A DNA stretch of 32,000 nt, from positions 6,539 to 38,538 of the IMG/VR virus record IMGVR_UViG_3300045988_032849. One strand, 5' to 3'. This document shows positions 5,691 to 31,470 of this stretch, piece by piece (position 1 is the first letter of the stretch; the number at the start of each line of letters is the position of its first letter). The notes below the pieces were generated by a model. The model did no database searches and was not told the origin of the DNA. It saw nothing but the letters and a program-made list of their open reading frames with translations. Origin of the DNA: a virus. The position numbers and the translations under genes were made by a program.

Positions 5691-5872
5691 GCAAGAGAGT
5701 GCAGGCTACAATTTCTAATGATCTATTCACACACATCTTAGTTTTGAAAGAGTACGGAAATTACAAAAGTTTTTCAGCTTTAGTGGAAGAATCGCTTGAA
5801 AAAACAATATCTGAATATAACAAATATCAAAGTTTTAGAGATTATTTAAACATGAGGAAGCGCAATGAATAA
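5687..5872 (+). CDS. Small protein, possible ribbon-helix-helix fold
   Basis: ATGA overlap with the upstream gene. N-terminal beta-strand-like RVQATISNDL is followed by helices (SFSALVEESLEK). Confidence 0.55.
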   Translation: MSKRVQATISNDLFTHILVLKEYGNYKSFSALVEESLEKTISEYNKYQSFRDYLNMRKRNE

Positions 5873-6383
5873 CCTTAGAAATCTACGAAAACAGAAAAAT
5901 CGAACCATCATCGAGGTAGCTGAAGAAATAGGAGTGCCAAAGGTGACGGTTTTAAGTTGGGAACATGGAACCAGTCAAATTGGCATGGGTAAAGCCAAAA
6001 AACTAGCTGAATACCTTGGCGTTAGCGTTGGTTGTCTGTTAGGGCTTGATACACCAGCAAAGGACGGCATCTCAAAGCTCATCGATAAAATCAACCATTG
6101 GGCAGACAGCCGTGGATTAAAGCAAGCAGACCCTAAGATTCAGTGGATGCGTATCACGGAAGAAGTCGGAGAAATTCGGGATGTACTCTTGAAACCGACT
6201 AAATTTACAGAACCGCAAACAGCACTCAAGGACGCTATCGGTGACACGCTAGTAACGATTATCGTGCTAGCACATCAATTAGATCTTGATGTAACTGAGT
6301 GTCTAAGTATTGCATACGAAGAAATTAAGAATAGAAAGGGAAAAATGATTAATGGAACATTCGTCAAAGAAGAGGATTTATAA
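5865..6383 (+). CDS. XRE-type HTH domain fused to a MazG-like nucleotide pyrophosphohydrolase domain
   Basis: N-terminal part: LRNLRKQKNRTIIEVAEEIGVPKVTVLSWEHG...LAEYLGVSVGCLLG (HTH_3-like). C-terminal part: RITEEVGEI ... AIGDTLVTIIVLA ... AYEEIKNRKGKMINGTFVK (MazG-like EEXGE / GD / NRKG pattern). Confidence 0.7.
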   Translation: MNNLRNLRKQKNRTIIEVAEEIGVPKVTVLSWEHGTSQIGMGKAKKLAEYLGVSVGCLLGLDTPAKDGISKLIDKINHWADSRGLKQADPKIQWMRITEEVGEIRDVLLKPTKFTEPQTALKDAIGDTLVTIIVLAHQLDLDVTECLSIAYEEIKNRKGKMINGTFVKEEDL

Positions 6384-6660
6384 CGACCTAGCTATTGCTA
6401 CCGTGCTACTCATGGTATCACTAGCAATTAATATAACTACTGTCTTGCGAGTGGTTAATAGACCGGTGGAAGCTATTGTCGTGCATAAGGCTGATAACGC
6501 CACTGTATTGCATGGAAAAATCACCGGCAAGGAAATGGTCGGAAAACTCTACACGCTTGATTGTGGGGCTTACGGGAAATTCCTTGTAAGCAAGGAACAA
6601 TACGACAGCGTGCAGGTTGGGGATGATATTCCCAGTTATTTGAAAGGACGGGGGCAATGA
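6352..6660 (+). CDS. Small membrane-anchored protein (one N-terminal TM helix)
   Basis: LAIATVLLMVSLAINITTVL is a hydrophobic helix. ATG 6412 is a possible alternative start. The stop overlaps the next start (ATGA). Confidence 0.6.
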   Translation: MEHSSKKRIYNDLAIATVLLMVSLAINITTVLRVVNRPVEAIVVHKADNATVLHGKITGKEMVGKLYTLDCGAYGKFLVSKEQYDSVQVGDDIPSYLKGRGQ

Positions 6661-7031
6661 TACCAAGATTTAGAGCGTGGGATAAAGAGTTTAAAGAGAT
6701 GGTGCAAGTTGACGCACTGGTTTTCGAGGAACAAATTATCAAAGTAACTTACAAAAATGGAAATGTTGTAAAAGAAGACTTAAAAAATTATGTACTCATG
6801 CAATCCACAGGCCTCAAAGACAAGAATGGCAAGGAAATCTTTGAGGGGGATATTATTGATTCAACAGATGGTTTTATTACTGGGGTAGTTGAATTTAGAG
6901 AAGCTTTGGGGATGTTTATCAGTGATTTAGTAGAGTACAACAATTTTGAACGTTTATGCAACGTAGCCAGCTCAAGGAAAATTATCGGGAATATATGGGA
7001 ACATCCAGAATTGGCAGAGGCGAGTTCATGA
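6657..7031 (+). CDS. YopX-family protein
   Basis: MIPRFRAWDK ... LMQSTGLKDKNGKEIFEGDII ... IIGNIWEHPEL is the typical YopX signature. Confidence 0.85.
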   Translation: MIPRFRAWDKEFKEMVQVDALVFEEQIIKVTYKNGNVVKEDLKNYVLMQSTGLKDKNGKEIFEGDIIDSTDGFITGVVEFREALGMFISDLVEYNNFERLCNVASSRKIIGNIWEHPELAEASS

Positions 7032-7738
7032 GCAAAACCTACAAATATTCCGGACTGACACCAGAATTATATCAACGGTTAGTCAGTGAACATGCGGAAC
7101 TGAGAAAAGCGCATAAAAAAGGCTCTTATAAGCAGTTCTTTCAAGAGGTCAAGCAGTGCGATGAGTTACAGGCTCGCATCATTTATCAAGCATTCAACGC
7201 CGCAGTCGTTGAGCGTGCGAGGATATCACCAGCGACAGTCGACAGACTAGAAGGCATTATCTCCGATGAATTATTCAACGACCTTCAAGATTATCTGTCT
7301 ACTAATTACACAAGAGGGAAAACCACTAAACCGGTTTTGGATAAAACCAATGCTGGACTGCCAGAGGGGCTGTTTAAACGGTTTCGTAAGGAAGTGGAAG
7401 AACTACGCAAGGGACATCCTAACAATCTAAATAACTACATTAGAGACGTCAAGGACTGCGACCAGAAAAACGCTAACAGGACCCAAAACGCCCTCAATCT
7501 GTGCTATGCGGGAAAAGCCGCACTAACACCTTTGAAAGCAATTCAAATGGAAGGGCTACTTTCAAGAGAGCTATTTAGTGAGATTATTGATTTCGTTTTC
7601 AATAACTATGAATGGGCCGAGAGGTTGGACAACGAAATTGATCGCATAACCCTAGAATATCGGACCAAAGGCAAGGTAGGGCGTGAGAAGACCACGGTCA
7701 GAAAAGCTCTATATAAAGCCTACATGTTAGGCGTGTAG
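7028..7738 (+). CDS. Hypothetical protein built of two homologous roughly 85-aa repeats
   Basis: ATG 7028 overlaps the yopX stop. The repeats align: GLTPELYQRL..ELRKAH..VKQCD..EGIISDELF..NY versus GLPEGLFKRF..ELRKGH..VKDCD..EGLLSRELF..NY. Confidence 0.7.
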   Translation: MSKTYKYSGLTPELYQRLVSEHAELRKAHKKGSYKQFFQEVKQCDELQARIIYQAFNAAVVERARISPATVDRLEGIISDELFNDLQDYLSTNYTRGKTTKPVLDKTNAGLPEGLFKRFRKEVEELRKGHPNNLNNYIRDVKDCDQKNANRTQNALNLCYAGKAALTPLKAIQMEGLLSRELFSEIIDFVFNNYEWAERLDNEIDRITLEYRTKGKVGREKTTVRKALYKAYMLGV

Positions 7739-7783
7739 CTAGAACGGTTTATGAGGGTTCGACTCCCTTGCTAGCTATTACCA
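7736..7783 (+). other. tRNA 3-prime-half-like minihelix A (acceptor-like stem, canonical T-arm, then ..CCA)
   Basis: T-stem GAGGG/CCCTT (7753-7757 / 7765-7769) with loop TTCGACT. Flanking TAGCTAG (7736-7742) pairs with CTAGCTA (7771-7777). CCA at 7781-7783. Confidence 0.45.
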
Positions 7784-7955
7784 GTAAATCTAAATATAGA
7801 ATCGAGGAATCCTTTATTTTTTCATTCAAATCAAGCTGAAGCGTGACTGGTCGTGGATGCTACCAAAATCCAGTAAATAATAAGTTATAGAATCGAGGAA
7901 CCTTTTTTATTTCGTTCACAAATCTAAAGCGTCCTTACTGGTGGCGTGATTCTTC
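7781..7955 (+). repeat. Diverged tandem direct repeat, period 89 bp (two copies)
   Basis: Copy 1 spans 7781-7869 and copy 2 starts at 7870. Shared blocks are CCAGTAAAT, TATAGAATCGAGGAA, a T-rich tract, AAATC, AAGCGT and ACTGGT.G.G..T.CT. Confidence 0.7.
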
Positions 7956-8024
7956 AAGGCGTATGCCTGCAATTAGATATAGGTCAGAAATCTCCATAAT
8001 TCACCTAATTAATTCTTGTATTAT

Positions 8025-8051
8025 TTCAAAAAACGAAAGGGGAATATCCCC
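8025..8051 (-). terminator. Minus-strand intrinsic terminator
   Basis: Hairpin GGGGA-ATA-TCCCC (8039-8051). On the minus strand it is followed by TTTCGTTTTTTGAA. Confidence 0.5.
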
Positions 8052-8070
8052 GATAATGATTTCACTATAT

Positions 8071-8115
8071 CTGGCTGGAGTGGTTGTATAAGGGGTTCGA
8101 TTCCTCTTGCCAGTC
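8071..8115 (+). other. tRNA 3-prime-half-like minihelix B
   Basis: T-stem AGGGG/CCTCT with loop TTCGATT (8091-8107). CTGGC (8071-8075) pairs with GCCAG (8109-8113). Homologous to element A across GGTT.TAT.A.GGGTTCGA.TCC..TTGC. Confidence 0.45.
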
Positions 8116-8131
8116 ATTGTCTGTCAAAACA

Positions 8132-8160
8132 CACTAAAAAATGGATATAGATTTTTAGTG
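8132..8160. repeat. Perfect 9-bp inverted repeat CACTAAAAA / TTTTTAGTG (hairpin, 11-nt loop)
   Basis: Direct reading. It is nested inside a larger inverted repeat, CATTGTCTGTCA at 8115-8126 versus its complement at 8201-8212 (11 of 12 positions). Confidence 0.7.
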
Positions 8161-8398
8161 GCTTGAACACTTTTCGACACTTTTTCAACACCGAGCAAGC
8201 TGACAGACATTGCTCAAACAAAACCCAGCAAATTTAAGAAAAAAGGATGTGAAAAAAGCCTCTTTCTTATTGATATCATTGCGTTACAAAAACAAAGCCA
8301 AAGATCTTGCTGGTGTCGATGGCTAGGAAGGAGGCGATAAAAAGCCCGAGAACAAATACACTTATCTTTTCATAAATCTCTTAATGTTTCTAGGGCTA

Positions 8399-8428
8399 AA
8401 ATAAAAAAAGACCGACACGATGGCCGGC
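8399..8428 (-). terminator. Minus-strand hairpin plus T-run
   Basis: The minus strand reads GCCGGC-CATCGT-GTCGGT followed by CTTTTTTTATTTT, about 25-50 nt downstream of the minus-strand extended -10. Confidence 0.4.
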
Positions 8429-8451
8429 ACTCTTTGAAAGTCAACACTACT

Positions 8452-8460
8452 ATTATACCA
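8452..8460 (-). promoter_or_regulatory. Minus-strand extended -10 promoter TGGTATAAT, divergent from the late regulator gene
   Basis: The reverse complement of attatacca is TGgTATAAT, the same element as promoter P1 in the post-lysin array. No good -35 is present. Confidence 0.4.
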
Positions 8461-8474
8461 GAGAGGGCAGAACA

Positions 8475-8891
8475 ATGCTATTGCCGGAAATTGATGAGAA
8501 AGCAACTATCAGAGGTTGCAAGCGTAAACTTCGAGAATATCCAAGATGGCGAGAGATAGCACACGATAGCGCTGAGCAGAAGATTACACAAGAGTTTACT
8601 TTCATGCCAAGAGGTGGCAGTGGTGTAAGTAGACCAGTGGAAAATATCGCAGTTAGGCGTGTCGATGCTATGAACGAGCTAGAAGCCATAGAGCAAGCAG
8701 TTAGCGGGCTATACCGTCCAGACTATCGCAGAATACTGATAGAGAAATATCTGGCATACCCACCGAAACCAAACTGGCAAATCGCCCAAGCAATCGGATT
8801 CGAGAGAACGGCTTTTCAAGAGCTACTTAATAATGCTGTCCTAGCATTCGCTGAATTGTATAGAGATGGTAAATTAGTTGTAGAATGTTGA
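8475..8891 (+). CDS. ArpU-family (sigma-70 region-4-like) late transcriptional regulator
   Basis: KRKLREYPRWREIA ... AVRRVDAMNELEAIEQAV..L ... RRILIEKYL ... WQIAQAIGFERTAFQELLNNAVLAFAELY. Located directly upstream of terS, as in many Firmicute phages. Confidence 0.8.
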   Translation: MLLPEIDEKATIRGCKRKLREYPRWREIAHDSAEQKITQEFTFMPRGGSGVSRPVENIAVRRVDAMNELEAIEQAVSGLYRPDYRRILIEKYLAYPPKPNWQIAQAIGFERTAFQELLNNAVLAFAELYRDGKLVVEC

Positions 8892-30311: not shown

Positions 30312-31058
30312 ATGGCAACAGATAATGACATCATTCAATTTGCAGAAGACCTAGCTAATGCTGAGGTTGGTACCGATGCAGATGGATCATGGGGGACACA
30401 ATGCGTTGACCTGCCTAACTCTATCTCAATTAACTTCTTTGGCCGTGCTCTTTGGGGTAACGCCATCGACTTGCTAAACTCAGCGGCAGCAGCAGGCTAT
30501 GAAGTGGAATACAACCAAGAAGGCAACCTTGATAGCCGTCCACGCCGTGGGGCTGTATTCGTCATGGATACTACTTACATCTATGGCCACTCTTACGGGC
30601 ACACTGGTCTGGTTATCGAAGATTCAGACGGCTACACTATGCGAACTATCGAGCAGAATATTGACGGCAACGCTGATAGCCTTTATATTGGCGGTCCTGC
30701 TCGTTACAATACACGTAATTTTGACGGCATTGTAGGTTGGTTCTATTTCCCAACGGATAACCAATCACAAGCCCCTGCACCAACTCCGACCCCGTTTGAT
30801 GGTATAATTACTATTAACGAGGAAACCGGGACATTCACGGTTGAAGTCTCAGCTCTTAATGTTCGAGCTGGTGCCGGGCTAGGTGCTGAAATCGTGGCAG
30901 TCTATGGAGCCGGTGAAACTATCAACTATGACGGCTGGTGCGACGTTGACGGCTATATCTGGATTAGCTACATTGGCGGGTCTGGTAATCGCCGCTTTGT
31001 CGCAGTCGGTCAATCAGAGAATGGTCGCCGTATCACATCATTCGGATCATTCGCCTAA
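30312..31058 (+). CDS. Endolysin: N-terminal CHAP domain plus C-terminal SH3b (SH3_5) domain
   Basis: The catalytic Cys context is WGTQCVDLPN and the His context is GHTGLVIE. A P/T/A linker (APAPTPTP) follows. The SH3b part is LNVRAGAG.GAEIVAVYGAGETINYDGWCDVDGYIWISYIGGSGNRRFV. Strong RBS. Confidence 0.9.
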   Translation: MATDNDIIQFAEDLANAEVGTDADGSWGTQCVDLPNSISINFFGRALWGNAIDLLNSAAAAGYEVEYNQEGNLDSRPRRGAVFVMDTTYIYGHSYGHTGLVIEDSDGYTMRTIEQNIDGNADSLYIGGPARYNTRNFDGIVGWFYFPTDNQSQAPAPTPTPFDGIITINEETGTFTVEVSALNVRAGAGLGAEIVAVYGAGETINYDGWCDVDGYIWISYIGGSGNRRFVAVGQSENGRRITSFGSFA

Positions 31059-31151
31059 ATTAAAACCAAGACCACGAATCAAAATAAAATAAAAAGGAGT
31101 ATATCACCTCCCGACAGACCACAGTTCGGACATCATGGTGGTAGTGGTCGA

Positions 31152-31180
31152 AGCCCTGGCATTTGCTGGGGCTTTTTTTA
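31152..31180 (+). terminator. T1, late-operon intrinsic terminator
   Basis: AGCCCTGGC-ATTT-GCTGGGGCT forms a 9-bp stem and is followed by TTTTTTTATTT. Confidence 0.8.
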
Positions 31181-31182
31181 TT

Positions 31183-31191
31183 TGGTATAAT
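31183..31191 (+). promoter_or_regulatory. P1, extended -10 TGgTATAAT
   Basis: Perfect TGnTATAAT 3 nt after the T1 T-run. Confidence 0.5.
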
Positions 31192-31197
31192 ATATCT

Positions 31198-31247
31198 AGG
31201 AAAGTGCCAGTAACTCTACGGGGTCTGGTGCGTTTTTTATTTTTTTG
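31198..31247 (+). ncRNA. Predicted short RNA 1 (about 50 nt; P1 to T2)
   Basis: Bounded by P1 and by hairpin 31204-31231 (7-bp stem including 2 G-U pairs) followed by GTTTTTTATTTTTTT. Confidence 0.3.
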
Positions 31248-31254
31248 TTATAAT
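31246..31254 (+). promoter_or_regulatory. P2, extended -10 TGtTATAAT
   Basis: Perfect TGnTATAAT embedded at the end of the T2 T-run. Confidence 0.5.
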
Positions 31255-31260
31255 GTTATT

Positions 31261-31304
31261 GATTTTGATGAATAAGTACCGCTTTCGAGCGGTTTTTATT
31301 TATT
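31261..31304 (+). ncRNA. Predicted short RNA 2 (about 45 nt; P2 to T3)
   Basis: Ends in ACCGCT-TTCG-AGCGGT (6-bp stem with a UUCG tetraloop, 31278-31293) followed by TTTTATTTATTT. Confidence 0.3.
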
Positions 31305-31315
31305 TGTGTTATAAT
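31305..31315 (+). promoter_or_regulatory. P3, TRTG-type extended -10 TGTGtTATAAT
   Basis: Perfect Gram-positive -16 TRTG motif plus TATAAT. Confidence 0.55.
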
Positions 31316-31321
31316 ATACCC

Positions 31322-31460
31322 ACAGCAAGTAAGTCTTGACTGTTCCAAAGACTGATTAAGTTCAGCGCCATGTAAGCTATGTGCACGTAGCCCGATGGAA
31401 TTTATGGAACGGGTGCCGTCGTGCCCACCGAAAAGGGCTATTTGAGAGAGGGCCCTTTTT
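31322..31460 (+). ncRNA. Predicted RNA 3 (about 140 nt; P3 to T4), multi-hairpin
   Basis: Internal hairpins are AGTCTT/AAGACT (31329-31351), GCTA/TAGC (31376-31391) and GGGTGC/GTGCCC (31411-31426). The terminal stem AAAAGGGC/GCCCTTTT lies at 31431-31460. Confidence 0.3.
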
Positions 31461-31470
31461 GTGTTATAAT
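31460..31470 (+). promoter_or_regulatory. P4, TRTG-type extended -10 TGTGtTATAAT
   Basis: Identical 11-mer to P3. Confidence 0.55.

Follow-up and report, generated by a model that had tools for sequence, protein, structure and literature searches.

Large structured RNAs of Lactobacillales phages such as ROOL (RF03087) and GOLLD (RF01998) are non-coding and have tRNA-related sequence nearby, GOLLD adopting a single multi-domain fold of ~800 nucleotides (nt). Also known are tRNA-like folds that form within longer transcripts—the 3'-terminal mascRNA of MALAT1, the TMERs of MHV68, the RNase P-processed C4 antisense RNA of P1 and P7—and small RNAs that, from a strong convergent promoter and with their own terminator, act against the leader of a regulator, as in lambda OOP/cII, P22 sar/ant, and the RNAIII/rep leader of pIP501 and pAMbeta1. 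We analyzed a 32,000-nt stretch of viral DNA (IMG/VR record IMGVR_UViG_3300045988_032849, positions 6,539 to 38,538; hereafter the window), in which a gap of 736 bases at 7739-8474—the island—has a DUF1340 gene upstream and the gene of an ArpU-type late activator downstream. A first-pass annotation, made from the letters alone, had proposed one large non-coding RNA there, of the ROOL/GOLLD class. We found instead a string of separable plus-strand modules, designated T, X, and Y, with helices that covary among related phages, which string might serve, as we tentatively propose, as a processed leader that sets the expression of the late activator.

Modular architecture of the island

The interval had been described as separating the early genes from the late activator and as containing no start of an open reading frame (ORF) of at least 60 amino acids (aa). 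Both statements held: the DUF1340 gene lies on the 5' side, the phrog_248 activator followed by terS lies on the 3' side, and within 7739-8474 not even an ORF of at least 45 aa starts on either strand. The gap and its edges hold seven short ORFs, which were not kept, being intact in just 1-11 of 45-90 distinct homologous stretches; and because they are not conserved among the relatives, the interval is non-coding and not decayed coding sequence, the latter being the alternative that the first-pass annotation had itself raised.

The relatives comprised 80 IMG/VR loci plus one locus from a metagenome-assembled genome, all gathered through the DUF1340 protein, and 119 further loci from a DNA pattern search; the annotated regions of SA-TP2, Javan535, Javan536, P0092, 5093, 2972, and Sfi21 were compared as well. 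By tblastn, DUF1340 homologs were present in 336 phage records, all of Streptococcus, and by blastn the island of phage 2972 had matches in 331 Streptococcus phage records. The modules recur in more than 300 dairy and oral Streptococcus phages just upstream of the late-activator gene. Annotation beneath the 2972-island match was absent in most records among the matches listed, and the records that we inspected gave the island either no feature or an arbitrary "hypothetical protein" ORF.

At every locus with downstream sequence a gap followed DUF1340, with an apparent length of ~170 to 750 nt, the shortest lengths being artefacts that arise from spurious ORFs with TTG starts; the distinct complete islands, measured between T and the ATG of the activator, spanned 301-788 nt. 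Nearly all of 100 distinct complete islands had the same order: T, X, Y, a minus-strand terminator, and ATTATACCA before the activator ATG. Longer islands add an upstream T-Y or T-Y-Y unit, with a second minus-strand terminator in some such units, and the island of the window consists of the short T-X-Y core plus an extra T-Y-Y unit 5' of that core; a spacer of 3 nt separates each T from the X or Y module downstream of it. The core was also found in phages 2972, Sfi21, 5093, and P0092, and the T-X-Y architecture was identical before ArpU-type activators and before the unrelated DUF1492/sigma-like (PF07374) ones. In one IMG/VR locus (L191, 3480-4272) DUF1340 is nearly all deleted, with its last ~40 nt left, and the full T-Y-Y-T-X-Y island including T1 is kept directly 3' of the YopX gene.

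We scanned the window and six relatives by cmscan with all 4227 models of Rfam 15. Nothing in the whole window matched at gathering score; in 7600-8600 neither ROOL, GOLLD, another large RNA, nor tRNA matched at E<=10, where chance-level matches alone appeared; and the six relatives gave nothing relevant at E<=1. The size of the island, its Lactobacillales prophage context, and its tRNA-like pieces do resemble those generally reported for ROOL and GOLLD; but RF03087 and RF01998 are missing at each of those thresholds, the ~300-nt versions in relatives are without half the modules, the homologous islands vary from ~300 to 790 nt by the presence or absence of whole modules, a minus-strand terminator interrupts the island midway (8039-8051), and the folding z-score is -2.4. 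The island is a string of separable, independently folding plus-strand modules and not one large RNA, and that the whole of it should form a single ornate RNA of the ROOL/GOLLD kind is extremely improbable.

Conserved and covarying helices

The two tRNA-like T-arm/acceptor minihelices that the first-pass annotation had listed were both found (T1 and T2 in Table 1), and the word GGTTCGAnTCC occurs in the 32-kb window at just those two sites, both on the plus strand, as are all the T elements of the family. Each is a mimic of the tRNA top half, with a tRNA-type T-arm: a 7-nt loop of the TTCRAnY type, a T-stem of 5-7 base pairs (bp), and an acceptor-like stem of 6-7 bp. The stack measures 13 bp in both window copies and 12-13 bp across the family, the acceptor/T-arm stack of tRNA being 12 bp. 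A complete cloverleaf is absent, the T-stem beginning a mere 9-10 nt after the 5' strand of the acceptor-like stem; ARAGORN returned no tRNA or tmRNA in the window and no tRNA in loci L001-L003. Among 42 distinct T1-type copies 97% of the cells were paired and 4 pairs had changed on both sides, examples being a U-A pair of the acceptor stem replaced by C-G and a G-C pair of the T-stem replaced by C-G through a U.G intermediate; among 24 distinct T2-type copies 99.7% of the cells were paired, likewise with 4 pairs changed on both sides; and in either alignment 0 of 500 shuffles reached the covariation score, which scores, like the Y haplotype counts below, are not tree-corrected. The GG of the bulge is invariant or nearly so among the T elements that have a bulge. 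In tRNA, G18-G19 of the D-loop contacts the T-loop; the GG of T is placed like that pair, and we infer by analogy that it may contact the T-loop in the same manner.

The sole Rfam similarity was a weak local match to the T-arm of tmRNA, and that similarity, together with the conserved elbow-like architecture of T-loop and GG bulge on a stack of 12-13 bp, would fit T elements acting as decoys for host factors with affinity for the top half of tRNA or for the tRNA-like domain of tmRNA (SmpB, tRNA-directed toxins, defense nucleases, or the CCA-adding enzyme), the island then being an RNA counter-defense locus. We consider this proposal very unlikely: the tmRNA matches, at 10-12 bits, are far under the gathering scores of 47-84; T lacks a CCA end and an anticodon arm, and has no G3.U70 alanine identity pair, T1 having G3-C and T2 C3-G; and the bulge is lacking in many S. 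thermophilus phages.

Hybrid T elements, in which the T1 5' half (TAGCTAG...) is joined to the T2 3' half (...GCCAGTC), occur in L006, L018/L045, and other loci, and there all the sequence between the two T copies is gone, which structure points to homologous recombination with crossovers in the conserved T-loop. Recombination between T copies would account for much of the difference in length among islands.

Several further observations concern the T elements. In the S. thermophilus phages the stop codon of DUF1340 lies within an additional short T-arm hairpin, e.g., GGCTTGTAGCGG TTCGAAT CCGCTATAAGTC with 12 bp, at L206 1-20 (phage 2972, NC_007019) and at L207 810-830 (Sfi21); in Sfi21, as read by eye, a bulge-less 12-bp version of T overlaps the stop codon. 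The linear GenBank record of 2972 begins inside the T-loop of that hairpin (GGTTCGAAAA...), and 3' of the hairpin lie GGAGGTGATAACAGCG and a plus-strand TATAAT. The T2 3' acceptor strand CCAGTCA (8110-8116) is the usual word of the Y1-type 5' strand and complements the Y1 3' strand TGACTGG (7844-7850); a CCAG/CTGG clamp is common to all the modules, so that pairings between modules are possible in principle. A pairing of the Y segment GAGGAATC with the T-arm of T2 was dropped, since that segment is not conserved (GAATCGA varies).

In the X module the loop of the local hairpin, CTGACAGAC (8200-8208), is an invariant 9 nt and complements the 5' strand GTCTGTCA, so that the same nucleotides have two possible partners. 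The local hairpin occurred in 53 distinct haplotypes, with the stems GGACAAG/CTTGTCC, GAGCAAG/CTTGCTC, GTCGAG/CTCGAC, GCATCG/CGATGC, and GTCAAG/CTTGAC along with G.U intermediates; in 16 diverse phages 6 of the 7 pairs had changed on both sides, with a covariation score of 0.688 versus 0.18 in shuffles. The long-range helix of 8 bp is the RNAalifold consensus and was constant in 16 of the 16 save for one G.U, and two rare variants outside that set were both G.U on the plus strand. Because the loop spares only 0-1 nt on each side of the paired stretch, the local hairpin and the 8-bp helix would be mutually exclusive.

The Y modules follow the same design: the 5' strand is CCAGnnA, and the 3' strand TnnCTGG also lies within the loop of a local hairpin, so that in X and Y alike the 3' strand of each 7-8-bp long-range helix can alternatively occupy that loop. 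The variable pair of the Y3 stem was U-A in 7 cases, U.G in 5, and C-G in 4. We then counted 190 distinct Y copies, extracted with no requirement for complementarity: the Watson-Crick states were CAA/TTG (59), TAA/TTA (57), and TCA/TGA (21), and the wobble states TAA/TTG (25) and TTA/TGA (5), whereas the reciprocal C.A state CAA/TTA occurred once. That asymmetry accords with pairing in a plus-strand RNA and not with half-sites in duplex DNA.

The same counts bear on the possibility that the conservation operates on DNA, with the repeats as module boundaries that favor homologous exchange between phages or as inverted repeats bound by a phage protein and the T elements as relics of attachment sites in tRNA or tmRNA genes. 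The hybrid T1/T2 elements and the whole-module differences do show recombination between repeats, and the same flank precedes two unrelated activator genes; but compensatory changes preserve pairing in four different helices, the intermediates are G.U on the plus strand with the reciprocal A.C nearly absent (25 versus 1), which bias would be unexpected of DNA half-sites, and an attachment-site relic would keep the 3' part of a tRNA only, but in T the 5' acceptor strand is present and matched as well, and throughout the family T has a single orientation. A purely DNA-level explanation is thus quite improbable. A miniature inverted-repeat or other transposable element was likewise rejected for X and Y, in that within the window the X strands pair just with each other and the modules are confined to the island.

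A further alternative would have X and Y as trans-acting phage small RNAs, with T as a mere processing handle for RNase P and RNase Z, in the manner of the TMERs or of MALAT1/mascRNA, and with the loops CUGACAGAC and UUACUGGUG as seeds for targets in host or phage. The X or Y that stands 3 nt downstream of every T, and an X loop invariant over very divergent phages on a stem free to covary, fit a presented recognition sequence; on the other hand, every module with an invariant loop also contains the perfect complement of that loop, as expected of folding in cis, the plus-strand complement of the X loop is found in the window within X itself only, Y-type 7-mers occur elsewhere in the window at about chance frequency, and the fixed place directly upstream of the activator gene suits a cis role better. 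We regard trans-action as unlikely.

For the 16 diverse phages the RNAalifold consensus recovered T together with the long-range helices of both X and Y. The features that the first-pass annotation had listed were each present where it had put them (Table 1), and its expectation of a conserved, covarying secondary structure with tRNA-like pieces was borne out by T, the X hairpin, and the Y helix. Its phrase "structure-dense" applies to those individual helices and only weakly to the global folding energy, for which the z-scores were -2.39 (plus strand) and -1.43 (minus strand); because that energy beats shuffles only modestly, the case for structure rests on the comparative evidence. The same annotation had named, as observations that would speak against it, the lack of a covariance-model match together with the lack of conserved or covarying structure in homologous phages: the former was what we obtained, but covarying helices were found.

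A possible leader role and the surrounding features

Downstream of Y3 stands an orphan Shine-Dalgarno (SD) sequence, AAGGAGG (GGAGGTGATAA in relatives), some 140 nt upstream of arpU; no start codon lies at working distance, the following CGATAAAAAGCC being without ATG, GTG, or TTG. With a loose regular expression an SD-like motif after Y was scored in most, though not all, of the 100 complete islands, and it is present in 2972, Sfi21, and 5093.

The 3' end of the island holds a predicted mini-gene on the minus strand, whose RNA of ~43 nt, from ~8445 to 8403, would be antisense to the arpU leader. Its boundary is 14 nt from the arpU ATG, directly upstream of the ribosome-binding site of the activator. 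Of 93 distinct upstream regions, 90 have TGnTATAAT on the minus strand at a distance of 13-20 nt from the ATG, and a T-run begins 40-43 nt beyond it in 87 of those 90. The hairpin between them is of two unrelated sequence types, and in all of the 36 variants compared its minus-strand form was much the more stable one (mean -7.85 versus -2.47 kcal/mol). A predicted promoter and an intrinsic terminator thus stand opposite the target leader, the arrangement of a cis-antisense RNA. The other minus-strand terminator, between the upstream T-Y-Y unit and the core, has in L025 a GGAGG/CCTCC stem in place of GGGGA/TCCCC, with the plus-side A-run retained.

For the plus strand, a scan for sigma-70 promoters inside the island gave none, and the candidates picked by eye were all poor. 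The published TEX RNA-seq of phage 2972 describes two primary promoters only, early and middle, and places ArpU within the early gene cluster (PMC11551762). By homology to that transcript organization, the island would most simply belong to the early transcript, flanked there by the last early gene and the gene of the activator.

On these grounds we propose, at somewhat less than an even chance, that the island works in cis, as a leader in the early transcript that undergoes processing, and that it would set late-activator expression. The early polycistronic RNA would run through the island. The T elements have the structural prerequisite for recognition by tRNA-maturation enzymes—the 12-13-bp stack, the T-loop, and the elbow-like GG bulge—and RNase P might act on the 5' side and RNase Z on the 3' side of the acceptor/T-arm stack, the cut detaching the activator messenger RNA (mRNA) from the early mRNA 5' of it. 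The domains X and Y, together with an orphan SD bound by ribosomes, would shield the new 5' region against 5'-to-3' decay, and the convergent promoter with its antisense RNA would damp activator expression, so that T, X/Y, the orphan SD, and the antisense RNA might jointly determine how much of the late activator is made and when.

A more elaborate version, which we consider distinctly improbable, treats the T elements as genuine substrates of RNase P and RNase Z and thereby as punctuation of the early transcript, with X and Y freed as bistable small RNAs and with the DUF1340 stop codon lost by the cut at T1. The severed DUF1340 mRNA would then be stopless, and trans-translation would end the last early protein at the moment when the activator mRNA is freed.

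Several observations weigh against the proposal of a processed cis-acting leader. The bulge of T is absent in some relatives, including many S. thermophilus phages, so that not every T feature is essential; the outer stem is mismatched in the hybrid elements and is therefore not always maintained; and T has neither NCCA at the tRNA position nor, as stated, G3.U70. The X long-range helix is invariant, and covariation is therefore unable to support it, and the global folding energy is only modestly better than that of shuffles. The number of module copies varies between islands, which variation would be unusual for a precise regulatory device. Finally, the passages searched in the phage 2972 papers mention no minus-strand small RNA, though one of ~43 nt could escape standard libraries.

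The coordinates of the modules, minus-strand elements, and neighboring genes are collected in Table 1.

Table 1. Positions, in window coordinates, of the island modules, the sequence features within them, and the adjoining genes.
Feature	Position	Strand	Description
DUF1340 gene	6956-7738	+	Early gene, last of the early set; 260 aa; PF07067, E=1.3e-75; phrog_1814
T1	7736-7777	+	tRNA top-half mimic; acceptor-like stem 7 bp, TAGCTAG/CTAGCTA; T-stem 5-6 bp; T-loop TTCGACT; 5' bulge AACGGTTTA, 9 nt, conserved GG; first three bases are the DUF1340 stop codon TAG (7736-7738)
Y1	7781-7862	+	Long-range stem CCAGTAA (7781-7787)/TGACTGG (7844-7850), one A.G mismatch; direct-repeat families D1, D2; interior with purine-rich GAGGAATCC and a T-run segment; local hairpin around the 3' strand
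Y2	7870-7955	+	Long-range stem CCAGTAA (7870-7876)/TTACTGG (7935-7941)
Intrinsic terminator	8028-8051	-	GGGGATATTCCCC then TTTCGTTTTTT; from the terminator scan
T2	8073-8115	+	Second tRNA top-half mimic; acceptor-like stem 6 bp, GGCTGG/CCAGTC, with one G.U; T-stem 7 bp; T-loop TTCGATT; bulge AGTGGTTGTA, 10 nt
X	8119-8215	+	5' strand 8119-8126; variable hairpin 8132-8160; ACACTTTT repeats 8167-8189; local hairpin 8193-8215
Inverted repeat	8115-8126/8201-8212		Complementary at 11/12 positions
Hairpin	8132-8160		Perfect, 9 bp, CACTAAAAA/TTTTTAGTG
Inverted repeat	8161-8165/8196-8200		Perfect complement
Inverted repeat	8193-8198/8210-8215		Perfect complement
ACACTTTT word	8167 and 8177		Two copies
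Y3	8225-8324	+	Long-range stem CCAGCAA (8225-8231)/TTGCTGG (8307-8313); inner hairpin AAGAAA..TTTCTT; local hairpin AGCCA..TGGCT encloses the 3' strand
Long-range complement	8225-8231/8307-8313		Perfect
Orphan SD	8328-8334	+	AAGGAGG
Predicted mini-gene	8402-8460	-	Extended -10 TGGTATAAT 8452-8460; terminator hairpin 8411-8428; U-run 8402-8410
arpU	8475-8891	+	ArpU-type late transcriptional activator; 138 aa; phrog_248, E=2.1e-43
terS	8984 (start)		3' of arpU
terL	9438 (start)		3' of arpU

DNA and protein searches grouped the window with the Streptococcus salivarius/thermophilus siphophages, the Aliceevansviridae, the closest cultured relative being the S. salivarius phage SA-TP2, with an island identity of 84%. 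Every window ORF of at least 110 aa that has no larger overlapping plus-strand ORF is on the plus strand. In annotated related phages, activators of the present type are labeled ArpU or transcriptional activator. The predicted DUF1340 ORF shares 76 nt (6956-7031) with the YopX gene, and its Pfam match runs from residue 25 onward; the real start is probably ~70 nt downstream of 6956. Farther upstream, 5865-6383 encodes a fusion of an N-terminal HTH_3 with a C-terminal MazG-like pyrophosphatase domain (phrog_1994), which latter part stands alone in L191 as a 104-aa protein.

Five plus-strand extended -10 motifs of the form TGnTATAAT (at 30800, 31183, 31246, 31307, and 31462) fall within ~670 nt of the window, 30800-31470, at and past the end of the ORF 30312-31058, and may constitute a cluster of strong promoters; we liken it to the early promoters downstream of the lysin gene in S. 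thermophilus phages (PMC13575424). Among the chance-level Rfam matches, that to CRISPR-DR38 had E=1.8. A tracrRNA mimic was considered because of a likeness of 7955-7975 to the nexus of the St1Cas9 tracrRNA and was rejected, local alignments with that tracrRNA (sequence from PMC8038530) scoring 17-18 versus a shuffle median of 19.

Comparison with described systems

Among phages, those of S. thermophilus pose the chief threat to dairy fermentation and are the classic CRISPR model, and the island is unannotated or misannotated in the records inspected. If the proposed leader role were true, there would be a testable handle on the timing of the early-to-late switch in phages of this type, the pieces being a tRNA-like processing signal that overlaps a stop codon, RNA domains able to switch between folds, a ribosome-binding site without a gene of its own, and a mini-gene for an antisense RNA. 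Independently of role, T, X, and Y are well-supported candidate RNA motifs for curation, with abundant comparative data behind them. Searches of the literature on ArpU with non-coding RNA, on tRNA-like elements with Streptococcus prophages, and on DUF1340 found no description of the element, nor do the T, X, and Y motifs, their combination, or their position have an Rfam family; signals for tRNA-like processing, phage regulators under the control of antisense RNA, and stabilizer SDs are, for their part, known kinds.

As in mascRNA, the TMERs, and C4, the tRNA-like fold of T is embedded in what would be a longer transcript and directly precedes other structured RNA, its acceptor/T-arm stack and canonical T-loop being the feature that RNase P and RNase Z recognize. 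T differs from all three in comprising the top half only, without D or anticodon arms, with a 9-10-nt bulge and with a 13-bp stack versus the 12 bp of tRNA, and in overlapping a stop codon; there is no sequence-family relationship, and the processing of T is only predicted. The version in which T frees X and Y as small RNAs would make the island a phage counterpart of the herpesvirus tRNA-miRNA units. With the tRNA-like domain of tmRNA, T shares the acceptor stem and T-arm, a reduced, stemless D-loop analogue with GG, and a similar T-arm sequence, GGGTTCGACTCCC; T differs in lacking G3.U70, the ACCA end, the pseudoknots, and the tag reading frame.

The mini-gene resembles OOP, sar, and RNAIII in its predicted strong convergent promoter, its own terminator, and its position against the leader of a regulator, and a system of the pAMbeta1 type combines an antisense RNA with a long leader having alternative structures (PMC8860593). 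The mini-gene RNA, at ~43 nt, would be shorter than all of those, would leave the ribosome-binding site uncovered, and is predicted from sequence; and, as a difference of the island as a whole, a plus-strand attenuator terminator is not evident. The orphan SD recalls the STAB-SD of the cryIIIA type, a 5' stabilizer of Gram-positive mRNAs, with a strong SD-like AAGGAGG (GGAGGTGAT in relatives) in a leader that has no start codon at working distance, the stabilizing role being putative. With ROOL and GOLLD, finally, the island shares its non-coding nature, its setting in Lactobacillales phages, and its tRNA-like pieces, and differs from them in being modular, with far smaller conserved cores in its relatives.

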